Shown here: positions 31,898 through 36,220 of the stretch, piece by piece
How positions within the stretch are numbered: the stretch's first letter is position 1
Layout: every line of letters begins with the position of its first letter
NCBI GenBank assembly: GCA_963715985.1
Contig: CAVQSP010000010.1
Span: 128,001-192,000, forward strand
Direction: 5' to 3'
Length of the DNA stretch: 64,000 nucleotides
From: an uncultured Thermoleophilia bacterium
GTDB lineage: Bacteria > Actinomycetota > Thermoleophilia > UBA2241
Translations under genes and position numbers: made by a program
The notes under the pieces: generated by a model
The model's input: the letters and a program-made list of their open reading frames with translations, nothing else
What the model was told of the DNA's origin: nothing
The model's database searches: none

Positions 31898-32368
31898 GTG
31901 AAGACCGGCAAGCCCGACGACACCGACCTCAAGGCGCGGCTCACCGAGCTGCAGTACCAGGTGACCCAGCGCGACGGGACTGAGCCACCGTTCGCCAACG
32001 AGTACTGGGACGAGCACCGCGACGGCATCTACGTGGACGTGGTCAGCGGTGACGCGCTGTTCAGCAGCCGCGACAAGTACGACTCCGGCACCGGCTGGCC
32101 GAGCTTCTCGCGCCCGCTGCGCGACGAGGCCGTGACGACGAAGACCGACTACAAGCTCCTGATGCCGCGCACCGAGGTCCGCTCCCGCGCGGCCGGCTCG
32201 CACCTCGGTCACCTGTTCAAGGACGGCCCGGCACCTACGGGTCAGCGCTACTGCATGAACTCGGCGGCGCTGCGCTTCATCCCCAAGGAGGACCTGGAGG
32301 CGGAGGGGTACGGCGAGTACCTCCGCCTCTTCCAGGAGCCCGAGGGCGGCGCCGCGCACGACGAGTAG
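31898..32368 (+). CDS. msrB: Methionine-R-sulfoxide reductase, non-zinc type
   Basis: [35 protein letters not shown]; lacks the CxxC zinc motifs. Confidence 0.93.
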
Positions 32369-32471
32369 GGCCGCACCGCAGCGGACGAGCAGGGAGGCGA
32401 TCCCCGGCTGCGGGAGGCACTGCGCCGGGGCCGTGTCGCGGCGCCCTGCCCGGTTGTCGTAGGATTCGCGC

Positions 32472-33086
32472 GTGGCTCGGTATCGCAACGAAGAAGAAGC
32501 CCTCATCGGCCTCGCGAGGCAGCTGGCCGACGCGTGCCGTGAGGCCAAGTCGGACGAGGACGAGGAGTACGCGACCGACGCCATCAACGACTTCCTCCGC
32601 GACAACGACCAGCACGCCCCCGCCGAGGCTCTCATCGCCCTGCTCGACATGCCCATGAGCAAACGCACGTGGCCGCTCGTGGACAGCGTCGAGGAGACGC
32701 TCATCGGCCGCGGCTGGGAGGTCGTCGAGCCGCTGTTGGCGGCGACGCAGGGCCGCGTGTACGACCTCGCCGGCCCGGTGCCCCAGCGCGCCCGCGAGAC
32801 GCTCTCCGGGCTCAGCCACGCGCGCCTGATCTTCGGCCTCGTCGACGTGCTGCGAGGCAAGGCCGACGACGACCTCAAGCGCGCCGCCGTGACCGACCTG
32901 GTGGCGCTGGGCGACACGGCGGAGCCGGCGCTGCTCGAGGCGCTGGACCATCCCGCCGCGCGCCGCTGGGCCCAGGACGCCCTCGGCGACCTGCGCGCGG
33001 CGCGTGAAGAGGCGAAGCTGACCGAGGACCTGGAGCGGGCGGCCTCGGGTGAGGACCGCGTGGGAGGGAGAACGCGGGATGAGTGA
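32472..33086 (+). CDS. HEAT-repeat-like helical hypothetical protein
   Basis: VVEPLLAA..., AAVTDLVALGD.AEPALLEAL...AQDALGDL. Confidence 0.5.
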   Translation: MARYRNEEEALIGLARQLADACREAKSDEDEEYATDAINDFLRDNDQHAPAEALIALLDMPMSKRTWPLVDSVEETLIGRGWEVVEPLLAATQGRVYDLAGPVPQRARETLSGLSHARLIFGLVDVLRGKADDDLKRAAVTDLVALGDTAEPALLEALDHPAARRWAQDALGDLRAAREEAKLTEDLERAASGEDRVGGRTRDE

Positions 33087-34500
33087 AGGTACGGCGCTCG
33101 CCGGCCTCGCGGCGGGGGTGGCCGCCGGGGAGGTGAGCGCCGAGGCGCTGGTGGCGAGGGCCTACGAGCGCGTCGGCAGTCTGAACGGGCAGGTCAACGC
33201 CGTCGTCGCGCTGCGCGACGAAGAGGAGGCGCTGGCCGAGGCGCGCGCGCTCGACGAGAGCGTCGGCCGGGGCGAGCGTCTCGGCGCTCTGGCGGGGGTG
33301 CCGTTCCTCGTCAAGGACGCGCAGGATCTCGCCGGCGTGCCCACCCGACACGGCTCGCTGCTGTTTGAGCGCGCGCCGCCCGCCGCTCGCGACACCCTTG
33401 CCGTGGCGCGTCTGCGGGCCGCTGGGGCGATCCCGGTCGGCAAGTCCAGCGTGCCGGAGTTCTGCTTCGAGGGATTCACGGCCAGCCGGCTCTCGGGGGA
33501 CACGCTCAACCCGTGGGCCCTGGATTGGTCGCCGGGCGGCTCGAGCGGCGGCTCCGCCGCCGCCATGGCCGCCGGCATGGTCCCGTTCGCCACGGCCACC
33601 GACGGCGGCGGCTCCGTGCGCATCCCGGCCGCCTTCTGCGGCCTCTACGGACTCAAGCCCACCAACGGTGTCATCGCCCGCGACCCCGTCCCCCAGTGGA
33701 TCGACTTCACCACGGACGGGCCGCTGGCGCTGTCGATGGCCGACCTGCGGCTGCTGCTGCACGTGCAGGCCGGCCCCTCCTCCGGTGACCCCACCGCCCT
33801 GCCGGAAGACGCGCTGCGCGGCCTGCTGTCCGGGCGCCCGGCCAGTCGGCCGTCGCTGGTGCTGGCCGCGCCGCGCTTCGTGGACTGGGGCCCGCTGCCA
33901 AACGCCATCGCGGACCTGTTCGACGCGGCCCTGACGAGCCTGGAGAAGGACCTCGGGGTGCGCGTGGAGCCGCTGGCGCCGGGGCAGATCTTCGGCGGGC
34001 TCAACATCGACGAAGACTGGTTCATCACCGGCGCCTGCGAGCAGGCGCGGGCCTTCGGGGAGGAGGCCGTGGAGGCTGAGGCCGACCGGCTGCACCCCGC
34101 GTTTCTCACGGCCATGCGCCACGGCCTGCGCGTGACGCTGGACGAGTACCTGGCGGCGCGCCGCCGGCGCTTCGACTACGTGCGCGCCCTCGACGACCTG
34201 CTGGGCGCCGACCGCGTGATCGTCACGCCGACGATGCCGGTGACCGGGTTCCTGGCGGACGGCCGCGAGGTGGGCGCCGACCACCCGGGCACGGCGTCGT
34301 CCTCCTACAACACGCAGGCACAGAACATGACGGGCCACCCGGCCCTCTCGGTGCCCGCGGGCGTCGCCCCCAACGGCGTGCCCTTCGGACTGCAGATCAC
34401 CGGCCCGCGCTTCGCCGACCCGCTCGTCCTGGCCCTCGGCGAGGCCTGGGAGCAGGTCCATCCGGCGCGCCGCGCGGCGCCCGGCTACCAGGCGTTCTGA
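33079..34500 (+). CDS. Amidase-signature family protein
   Basis: GVPFLVKD, PGGSSGGSAAA, TDGGGSVRIPA.FCG..GLKPT. Confidence 0.92.
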   Translation: MSEGTALAGLAAGVAAGEVSAEALVARAYERVGSLNGQVNAVVALRDEEEALAEARALDESVGRGERLGALAGVPFLVKDAQDLAGVPTRHGSLLFERAPPAARDTLAVARLRAAGAIPVGKSSVPEFCFEGFTASRLSGDTLNPWALDWSPGGSSGGSAAAMAAGMVPFATATDGGGSVRIPAAFCGLYGLKPTNGVIARDPVPQWIDFTTDGPLALSMADLRLLLHVQAGPSSGDPTALPEDALRGLLSGRPASRPSLVLAAPRFVDWGPLPNAIADLFDAALTSLEKDLGVRVEPLAPGQIFGGLNIDEDWFITGACEQARAFGEEAVEAEADRLHPAFLTAMRHGLRVTLDEYLAARRRRFDYVRALDDLLGADRVIVTPTMPVTGFLADGREVGADHPGTASSSYNTQAQNMTGHPALSVPAGVAPNGVPFGLQITGPRFADPLVLALGEAWEQVHPARRAAPGYQAF

Positions 34501-34594
34501 GCCGGAGCGGTCGCCGAGGAGCCGTCACGGCAGCGTGTCCCCGGCGGCACAATCTTCCGCAACGCCGACGCAACACGCACTTCATAATCGCCGA

Positions 34595-34787
34595 CAAGAA
34601 TGGCACCAAGCCATACGACGGCATCGACGGCTGCCCCCCCGGCCGTCGGGACGCGACAGAGTCCGGTGCGCCCCCACCGTGTCGCTCCCAAGTTGCCCGG
34701 GCGGATCACCTCCTGCGCCCGGGAGCCGCTGGCCCCACATGGGCCGCGACGACTGCCCCCCAGTCGTCGCGGCCCATCCCCCTTTCT
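34595..34787 (+). ncRNA. Candidate 6C-like multi-hairpin sRNA with an anti-SD loop
   Basis: -10 CATAAT at 34583-34588; hairpins 34625-34648 (C6 loop), 34653-34685 (CGCCCC loop), 34696-34723 (GAUCACCUCCUG loop), 34739-34777 (17-bp stem, C loop), then a pyrimidine tail. Confidence 0.6.
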
Positions 34788-34845
34788 GGAGCCTGTCGTC
34801 GGCGGCGTACGCCCGCGACCGAGGCCGCTCGGCCGGCGGGCCGTT

Positions 34846-36220
34846 TCAGGGCGTGACCGTCTCCACCGCGAACGACGCCCAGTTGAGTGCCTCGCTCAAC
34901 GTGGGGTGGACGGCGCGCGTGGCCTGAACGTCGTCCAGCGTGGCCCCTGCGCGCACGGCCACGGCGAGGCCGTAGATGAGCTCGGCGGCGTGCGGGCCCG
35001 CCAGGTGGGCGCCCACGAGGCGGCCGTCCTGCTCGGCGAGGAGCTTGACCAGGCCGCCGCGCCGATCGCTGATGATGGCCTGCGCGACCCACTCGAAGTC
35101 CCCGCGGGCGACCTGGTACGGGGCGCCGCGCGCGGCCAGCTCGGCTTCGCCGAGCCCCACGCGCGCCACCTCCGGCACGGTGAAGCAGGTGCTCGGCACC
35201 AGCGTCAGGTCGGGCGCCGTGGGTTCGCCGCCGACGATGCTCTGCGCGACCGCCTCGCCCTCGAGGCCGGCGACCGGCGTGAGCTGGACGCCGCCGGCCG
35301 CGTCTCCGGCGAACCACACGCGCGGGTTGCTCGTGCTGCGCAGGAAGGCGTCCAGGACCGGGCGGCCGCGCTCGTCGACGGCGACCTCGCCGGCGGCGAG
35401 GTCGAGGCCGTCGTAGTCGGGCCGCCGCCCCGTGGCCGCCAGGACCTGCTCGCAGGCCAGAGCGAGCGGACGACCCCCGGCGTCTTCGATCCTCACGGTG
35501 AGCGCCCCCGGGTCTCCCTCGATGCCCCGGATGCGCGCGTCCGTCACGAACGTCACCCCACCGGCCTCGAGGCCGCTCCGCGCGAGCGCGGCGGCCTCCG
35601 GGTCGAAGCCTCTCAGCACCTCGGAGCCGCGGAGCACCACCGTCACCTGCGTGCCGAGGGCGGCGTAGATGCCGGCGAACTCCATGGCGATGTAGCCGCC
35701 GCCCATCACGACCAGCGAGGCCGGCTGTCGCGGGTACCGCAGGGCGTCGTCGCTGGTGCCGGCGAGCTCGATGCCCGGCAGCGTGCGGCTTCACCGGCTG
35801 CGAGCCCGTGGCGACGACGATGTGGACGGGCTCTATCGCGTGGCCGCCGGCCATGACCTCAGCCGCCGACGCGAAGCGGGCGTCGCCGTGGACCACCTCT
35901 ACGCCGAGGCTCCTGAGCGCGCCCTCCTGGTCGCCGGCGTAGGCCTGCTGCATCTCCAGCCGCCACGCCATGAGCCGCGACCAGTCCAGTGCAGGCGGCC
36001 CGGGGGCGAAGCCCATGCGGGCCGCCTCCGCCGCCTCCCGGCGGGTCTGGGCGGCCGTGTACAGTGCCTTCTTGGGCACGCAGCCGCGCCACAGGCACGT
36101 GCCGCCGAACTCGCCGCGGTCCACGACCGTGACCGTGAGGCCCGCGGCCGCCGCGCTCCGCGCCACGCGCGTCCCCGCGGCCCCGGCGCCGATGACCAGC
36201 ACGTCCCGTTTCTCAGTCAT
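34846..36220 (-). CDS. Class I pyridine nucleotide-disulfide oxidoreductase (glutathione/lipoamide reductase-like), frameshift near 35780
   Basis: GAGAAG, GGTCLWRGCVPKK, GGGYIAMEFA, AGDA, HPTLSE. Confidence 0.85.

Follow-up and report, generated by a model that had tools for sequence, protein, structure and literature searches.

In Firmicutes, the RsaE/RoxS RNAs carry C-rich motifs in their loops that pair with the Shine-Dalgarno (SD) regions of mRNAs. The 6C RNA of Mycobacterium, Streptomyces, and Corynebacterium binds G-rich ribosome-binding sites (RBSs) with its C-rich loops (e.g., the AGGGGGG of panD) and represses translation without Hfq or ProQ, as described in the sections of PMC6486639 cited here. 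The CcsR or cuckoo RNAs of Alphaproteobacteria expose the anti-SD sequence CCUCCUCCC in each of two loops and occur in several homologous copies, some of them in tandem; those of Rhodobacter are derived from a 3' untranslated region (cited sections of PMC8034643). In this study we describe an element of an uncultured Thermoleophilia bacterium, located in a stretch of 64,000 nucleotides of its genome (positions 128,001 to 192,000 of contig CAVQSP010000010.1; hereafter the window). Judged from its sequence, the element is a conserved gene for a folded small RNA (sRNA), belonging to a family that has not been described previously and that is restricted, among the genomes searched, to one uncultured Thermoleophilia genus. 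Literature searches on sRNAs and regulatory RNAs of Thermoleophilia yielded nothing relevant. A preliminary description of the locus had proposed an expanded 6C-type RNA in which one loop exactly mimics the 3' end of the 16S rRNA. Its central idea survives in a weakened form, and the 12-base identity is not the conserved feature.

Distribution and fold of the RNA family

The element occupies an intergenic gap of 345 nt (34501-34845) between an amidase gene and a convergent oxidoreductase gene. A CATAAT box and four hairpins lie in this gap, as the preliminary description had correctly recognized. The features of the predicted RNA are:

34596-34787, + strand: predicted small RNA of about 180-192 nt, with its 5' end at ~34595-34609 and its 3' end in the UUUCU tract
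34610-34622, + strand: 5' side of P1, a tentative closing helix (GCCA at 34610-34613, CGGC at 34619-34622), pairing with 34725-34733 in the minimum free energy fold
34625-34648, + strand: hairpin 1, CGACGGCUG / C6 / CGGCCGUCG, with the loop CCCCCC at 34634-34639
34648-34689, + strand: hairpin 2, a three-part bulged stem with the apical part GGUG-CGCCCC-CACC and the loop CGCCCC at 34669-34674
34696-34723, + strand: hairpin 3, CCCGGGCG / GAUCACCUCCUG / CGCCCGGG, with the 12-nt loop GAUCACCUCCUG at 34704-34715 carrying the anti-SD core
34724-34738, + strand: linker AGCCGCUGGCCCCAC, the 3' strand of the tentative P1 (34725-34733) and then a short C-rich single strand
34739-34777, + strand: hairpin 4, a perfect 17-bp stem and putative intrinsic terminator, with the loop CCCCC in the window copy
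34778-34787, + strand: 3' tail CCCCCUUUCU, a weak U tract

The outermost pair of hairpin 1 uses G34648, which is also part of hairpin 2. Hairpins 1 and 4 of the window copy indeed have CGACG(G/A)CUGCCCCCC in common, as noted earlier, and the linker sequence GCCGyUGGCCCC is nearly invariant among the aligned copies.

BLAST searches with the gap hit 23 of 24 genomes of the genus, many of them at more than one place. An unfitted MAFFT alignment (A1) comprises 63 non-redundant copies; three of 66 were dropped, namely L100 (cut by a contig end), L038 (diverging in its 3' part), and L054:675-865 (the same DNA as L040:1800-1990). A covariance model of 200 positions (R1), built from A1 with a hand-drawn structure, gives one to five matches per genome in 52 of the 54 members of the genus, and the two genomes without a match are 64 and 90% complete. 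There was no match in 10 genomes of other genera of the same family or in 125 genomes of other families of the class, both sampled with stricter filters. The window copy, on contig C10, is matched over 34596-34792 with 177 bits. Two further full copies are present in the window's genome, one with 158 bits on C17 (G000:C17:117299-117493, + strand) and one with 81 bits on C11 (G000:C11:560886-561082, - strand); the latter is the most divergent of the genome and lies near a TetR-like gene.

An exact-pattern scan of a named genome collection returned 68 loci, 52 of which are true homologues by nhmmer, all titled as metagenome-assembled genomes (MAGs) of uncultured Thermoleophilia, Actinomycetota, or Actinomycetes. 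The remaining 16 have no nhmmer similarity and were set aside as chance matches. They include every match outside the Actinomycetota and, within this phylum, L088 (an Actinomycetota MAG), L104 (a Thermoleophilia MAG), Sphaerisporangium, and Pseudolysinimonas. Tandem pairs of the RNA gene were found in G010:C11 (L020 1478-1998), G004:C13 (L040 1486-2046), G107:C81, and G072:C3. In L020 and L040, every unit of the pair comes with an upstream block and a terminator of its own. Units in tandem diverge most within the family and differ in their 5' region.

The multiple copies, many of which are located at contig ends of fragmented assemblies, could also be explained by a non-functional mobile repeat resembling a miniature inverted-repeat transposable element, or by a transposon guide RNA. 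We consider both very improbable. Terminal inverted repeats are lacking, the viral contigs searched gave no match, and none of the 67 flanking open reading frames (ORFs) matches a Pfam family of transposases, TnpB/IscB, or reverse transcriptases at E <= 1e-5. These ORFs were called by a crude rule based on the G+C content of third codon positions (GC3) and not by a gene finder. In addition, one copy is syntenic across the genus and the stems are kept by compensatory changes.

In the unfitted alignment, 93.4% of the cells contain standard pairs. Both sides have changed in 27 of the 55 pairs, compared to 11.8 +/- 1.8 in column shuffles (none of 500 reached 27) and to 9-13 pairs when the partners were slid by 1-3 columns. 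The model-fitted alignment of 69 distinct rows, which leans towards the structure, gives 35 of 55. Compensatory changes are present in hairpin 1, in the middle and apical parts of hairpin 2, in the inner stem of hairpin 3, and in hairpin 4. Hairpin 1 is paired in 99% of the cells, with both-side changes at five of its 6-7 pairs, and one pair in the middle stem of hairpin 2 is GC in 35 and AU in 27 copies. Hairpin 4 is paired in 98.5% of the cells; 5 of its 16 pairs have changed on both sides in the MAFFT alignment and 10 of 16 in the model-fitted one. The outer stem of hairpin 2 (GGGA/UCCC) is weak, with only 77% of the cells paired. This local stem replaced a long-range pairing between the GGG at the start of hairpin 2 and the CCC after the terminator, which had been suggested by RNAalifold and was discarded. 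The pairs of P1 (GCCA/UGGC and CGGC/GCCG) are formed in 91-96% of the cells with few both-side changes, mostly in divergent copies, and this closing helix is tentative. Stem covariation and loop conservation among homologues, which the preliminary description had named as a check, are both found: the stems covary and loops 1-3 are kept, the loop of hairpin 4 being the exception.

The + strand fold of 34583-34800 has -113.7 kcal/mol (z = -6.31) and none of 200 shuffles was equally stable, while the - strand fold is weaker (z = -4.48). G-U pairs are frequent on the + strand, one pair of hairpin 1 being U-G in 42 of 67 sequences. The + strand is supported because these pairs would be A-C mismatches on the other strand, and because the U-rich tail and the conserved upstream block both lie on the + side only. 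The preliminary description had itself raised the objection that the minus-strand AGGAGGTGATCC could be the RBS of a translated small ORF, and frames of 52 and 74 codons are indeed open on this strand of the window copy. This is hardly credible, however, since a start codon stands 4-10 nt behind GGAGG in just 2 of 63 copies, the starts of the two frames recur in 33 and 11 of the 63, the indels are not multiples of three, and no Pfam match was obtained. The element as a conserved and structured gene of a probably stand-alone RNA, read from the + strand and bearing 6C-like apical loops rich in C, is supported.

Loop conservation and the 16S rRNA tail

Loops were counted in 66 distinct full-length copies. 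Loop 1 contains at least five consecutive C in 60 of them (CCCCCC in 47). Loop 2 reads CGCCCC in 50, UGCCCC in 8, and CCCCCC in 5 copies, and the apical 14-mer of hairpin 2 is almost invariant. Loop 3 keeps CCUCC in 61 copies; its GAUCA part varies. The loop of hairpin 4 has CCCC in 15 copies, with CAAGG, CACGG, and others elsewhere. Because this C run is not conserved, hairpin 4 is best regarded as the terminator and not as a fourth 6C-type loop. Of the C-rich loops proposed earlier, loops 1 and 2 stand and that of hairpin 4 does not, and the dedicated anti-SD loop is borne out in its CCUCC core. At the level of the family, the sequence signature consists of two C-run loops and one CCUCC loop.

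In the window copy, GGATCACCTCCT at 34703-34714 is identical in 12 of 12 bases to the 3' end of the organism's own 16S rRNA (...GCGGCTGGATCACCTCCTTTCT, G000:C14). The 4.35-Mb genome contains GGATCACCTCCT four times, against 0.43 expected from base composition: at the 16S end, at the window locus, within a coding region, and at a site that complements a long SD sequence. At this last site (G000:C13:42001), GGATCACCTCCT is the complement of an unusually long SD (GGAGGAGGUGAUCC) before a GTG-started frame on the other strand, and loop 3 of the window copy would be perfectly complementary to the corresponding mRNA. Family-wide, the window copy is the only one of the 66 whose hairpin 3 matches the 16S tail over 12 nt; the longest identical run measures 9-10 nt in 7 copies, 8 nt in two, 6-7 nt in 47, and <=5 nt in the remaining 9. 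The exact mimicry described earlier is real in the window copy but is not shared by the family, and represents either a local accident or a recent refinement.

The 3' end of the RNA bears a second likeness to the 16S tail. The 3' tail plus the preceding AU (AUCCCCCUUUCU) resembles the 16S end AUCACCUCCUUUCU. The tail consensus CAUCCCCUUUUCUGG is conserved in the family, and the tail AUCCCC(C)UUUCU is itself close to that 16S end.

Transcript ends and genomic surroundings

A conserved block upstream of the RNA and the terminator accompany every copy, whatever the upstream gene, tandem units included. The features of this block in the window are:

34545-34601, + strand: conserved upstream block without conserved secondary structure, a putative promoter and/or regulator site
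34583-34588, + strand: CATAAT, first candidate -10 box, kept as CAyayT in most copies
34596-34601, + strand: AAGAAT, second candidate -10 box (nAnnnT), with A2 and T6 invariant in 63 of 63 copies, starting 13 nt after the start of CATAAT

Conservation sets in near 34545 (40 copies). RNAalifold gave no consensus pairs for the 100-nt upstream region of 63 copies, for which reason an additional hairpin of the block, with variable GC arms around AACAUCUUCCUCAAY and apparent on visual inspection of some copies, was rejected. AAGAAT is followed by 6-7 variable nt and then by a conserved CAAGCCA; if it is the -10 box, the RNA would start near 34608, where the conserved AAGCCA lies. The AAC at 34572-34574, invariant in 63 copies, has a possible -35-like position. 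It resembles the AAC of -35 boxes of the extracytoplasmic function type, but no matching -10 was found. Since either hexamer could be the -10 box, we infer a range of ~34595-34609 for the 5' end.

The locus itself was present in none of the sequencing runs. No run contained half of the 601-base query words, the RNA runs reaching 0.03-0.09. Four metatranscriptome runs from four studies (lake water, wetland, soil, and ice) each yielded one contig of a relative, 128-180 nt long and 85-99% alike, corresponding to the following window positions:

34640-34793: contig X2
34630-34727: contig X3
34624-34759: contig X8
34547-34690: contig X7

X8 has loose letters at both ends, which we take to be sequencing adapter. 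The uncovered flanks of the contigs are not evidence that the flanking genes are silent, as the contigs stem from relatives with different flanks. Short contigs are compatible with an abundant small RNA, and this proves little.

Several observations weigh against a self-contained transcript. A simple sigma-70 scan called no promoter (CATAAT is without a -35 match), a simple terminator scan called nothing (<5 T in 8), and two -10-like hexamers compete with each other. The contigs carry no strand and could represent DNA carry-over, which makes the RNA-library evidence ambiguous. X7 spans the supposed promoter block, and X2 extends 19 letters past 34793, beyond the terminator tail. Finally, the same gene, encoding an acidic protein of ~200 aa, immediately precedes the RNA in 12 of 39 flank sets and ends at the edge of the conserved block, so a longer transcript is possible.

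The RNA might be processed from a longer mRNA or form the end of one, with the upstream block as a precursor part or processing site; its function could remain the same. Besides the unknown-protein gene, the missing sigma-70 call, and the span of X7, such an origin would fit the co-directional upstream gene in 28 of the 36 copies that have one and the precedent of CcsR (cited sections of PMC8034643). We nevertheless regard it as unlikely: the block lacks RNA structure, its two TAnnnT-like hexamers retain an invariant A and T, it is present in front of all copies including the tandem units, and the upstream gene is on the opposite strand in 8 of 36 copies.

The flanking ORFs belong to many different families. 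The next downstream ORF of 39 copies is convergent in 15 and co-directional in 17, at very variable distance, and was not found in 7. These variable and often convergent downstream genes argue for an RNA acting in trans. A cis-acting element of the flanking genes, i.e., a shared bidirectional terminator, a leader, or a riboswitch, would agree with the position between convergent genes in the window and with the strong last hairpin. It is nonetheless very unlikely, as three conserved hairpins and an upstream block far exceed the needs of a terminator, the differing downstream genes offer nothing consistent to lead into, the minus side has no U tract, and Rfam gave no cis-regulatory match.

The genes around the element in the window are:

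~31899-33044, + strand: msrB (SelR domain), then the gene of the acidic ~200-aa protein
33049-34500, + strand: amidase gene (Pfam Amidase, 1.2e-81)
34846-36220, - strand: pyridine-nucleotide-disulfide oxidoreductase gene with its stop at 34846 (Pyr_redox_2 and Pyr_redox_dim)

One copy of the RNA gene has a conserved position across the genus, in the order msrB, acidic unknown protein, RNA, and a glutathione/mycothione-reductase-like or TetR gene; the window has this order with the amidase gene inserted. The acidic protein has no Pfam or NCBIfam match, apart from a weak HEAT_2 in one relative. The syntenic msrB and glutathione/mycothione-reductase-like neighbours hint weakly at a link with redox stress. 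The disulfide-reductase-like gene of the window is split into two frames in the assembly, with a break near 35781-35786: residues 12-165 of an intact homologue of 477 aa (L012) are encoded in one frame and residues 167-475 in another. The homologues in L012, L022, and L028 are intact, and the split gene reflects either an error of the MAG assembly or a pseudogene.

Proposed mechanism and comparison with known RNAs

We favour, with moderate confidence, a trans-acting regulatory RNA of ~190 nt, transcribed from the + strand between the promoter-like block and the 17-bp intrinsic terminator. The RNA would display three hairpins, possibly joined by a closing helix, with a C run, CGCCCC(C), and (A)CCUCC(U) in their loops, together with a C-rich linker and a C-rich 3' tail after the hairpins; loops, linker, and tail would all be single-stranded. 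The loops would pair with G-rich SD regions of mRNAs (GGAGG, G runs) and, independently of a chaperone, would block translation initiation or destabilize the mRNA. Such pairing is the most likely mechanism because of the 6C and CcsR precedents and because complements of the loops precede genes in the genome of the window. With crude gene calls, 48 of 951 AGGAGGT sites are followed at a distance of 3-12 nt by a GC3-supported ORF start, compared to 7 of 951 for the reverse complement; for G6 runs the figure is 55 of 1146, compared to 15 of 1146 in the control. The neighbouring msrB and reductase genes have GGGAGG SDs.

Other observations speak against such pairing. GGGGGCG, which is complementary to loop 2, shows no enrichment ahead of ORF starts (30 versus 21 of 1507), and a CCUCC alone would pair without specificity. 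The conservation of the apical 14-mer of hairpin 2 exceeds the requirements of pairing and could instead point to a protein as partner. The complement of this 14-mer, with at most one mismatch, occurs at four sites outside the RNA genes, none of them in an obvious start region.

A protein partner is at the core of another explanation, in which the RNA serves as a decoy or sponge: the top of hairpin 2, the CCUCC loop, and the tail would titrate a factor that recognizes C-rich RNA or the 16S tail, such as a KH-type RNA-binding protein, a nuclease of the 16S 3' end, or a sequence-specific endoribonuclease toxin, and additional copies would raise the dose. The sequence GGUGCGCCCCCACC is nearly invariant including its stem (two of five pairs never vary or only by unpaired cells), ORF starts show no excess of its complement, the 3' tail AUCCCCCUUUCU is similar to the end of the 16S rRNA, and a multi-copy, tandem organization is typical of titrating RNAs. 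The 67 flanking ORFs, however, include no conserved RNA-binding or toxin family, the part of loop 3 that resembles the tail outside CCUCC is not conserved, and the known RNAs with such loops, 6C and CcsR, act by base pairing according to the cited sections of their descriptions. We consider a decoy quite unlikely.

The likeness to the 16S tail could also be taken further. Loop 3 ((A)CCUCCU) and the 3' end (AUCCCCCUUUCU versus AUCACCUCCUUUCU), together with the two C-run loops, might form a multivalent mimic of the 16S tail that soaks up SDs genome-wide. We rate this as improbable. If true, translation would move to leaderless or SD-less mRNAs when the RNA is made from as many as five genes, perhaps in response to redox stress, and the RNA would be a dosage-driven global switch of the initiation mode, not a regulator of few targets.

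Returning to pairing with SD regions, we compared the RNA with described families. In a search of the whole window, no Rfam family scores at or above its gathering score, and neither 6C nor the cuckoo/anti-SD RNAs, for which the preliminary description had suggested a search, are exceptions. An expanded 6C-type RNA is not supported: with the 6C model (RF01066), neither 2.5 kb of sequence nor the 261-base element gave a match at E <= 10, and a search of the complete genome likewise gave none. In a sample of 101 genomes of the class, 6C had no match above its cut-off of 47 bits, with limited sensitivity, as the control C. glutamicum was found only below the cut-off. The sole sub-threshold 6C-like match in these genomes has 35.3 bits (G107:C150:13624-13697, L115). 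At E <= 10, the 261-base element reacts with ar7 (RF02342; 23.6 bits, gathering score 60), Scr3202 (RF02833; 23.1 bits, 52), CcsR1 (RF02791; 19.9 bits, 65.3), and ar14 (RF02344; 15 bits, 58.8). All these sub-threshold matches align only to hairpin 3 and the terminator. Scr3202 of Streptomyces and ar7 share with this region a C-rich loop followed by a GC-rich terminator, but just the 3' half aligns and hairpins 1 and 2 are unmatched. RsaE/RoxS is absent from the matches at E <= 10 and differs in phylum and architecture.

6C belongs to the same phylum and likewise has adjacent hairpins with C-run apical loops. The chaperone-independent pairing with G-rich RBSs proposed here has been shown for 6C with panD and dnaB, and the conserved loops L2 and L3 of 6C are C runs on two adjacent hairpins (cited sections of PMC6486639). 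Loops 1 and 2 of the window RNA have the same arrangement. In contrast to the 75 positions of the 6C model, the window RNA is about 190 nt long, with three functional hairpins plus a terminator, and it is multi-copy and has a CCUCC loop, which 6C lacks.

The CcsR/cuckoo RNAs share with the window RNA the CCUCC in a hairpin loop and the several copies per genome, some in tandem (cited sections of PMC8034643), and CcsR1 and ar14 are among the few Rfam models that react. However, the window RNA has one CCUCC loop instead of two CCUCCUCCC loops, its other loops are pure C runs, and CCUCCUCC-like loops occur in few copies only. There is also no DUF1127 among the 67 flanking ORFs, in contrast to the DUF1127 adjacency of the CIN1 subgroup. 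The resemblance to the cuckoo RNAs is convergence and not membership, the phylum being different.

If the pairing with SD regions is true, the family represents the third independent case, after 6C and cuckoo, of C-rich or anti-SD loops that address RBSs, with both loop types combined in one molecule and the gene amplified within one genus. The three mutable loops would provide a compact construct to study, in a Gram-positive host of high G+C content, whether an anti-SD loop distinguishes SD-led from leaderless mRNAs, and the covariance model R1 can be used for annotating these MAGs. The family probably belongs to a known functional kind, the regulators with C-rich or anti-SD loops, with an architecture of its own that comprises two types among its three loops, a 3' end resembling the 16S tail, and amplification of the gene. 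On the basis of these comparisons, the window RNA most likely works like the 6C and cuckoo RNAs, yet is a member of neither.

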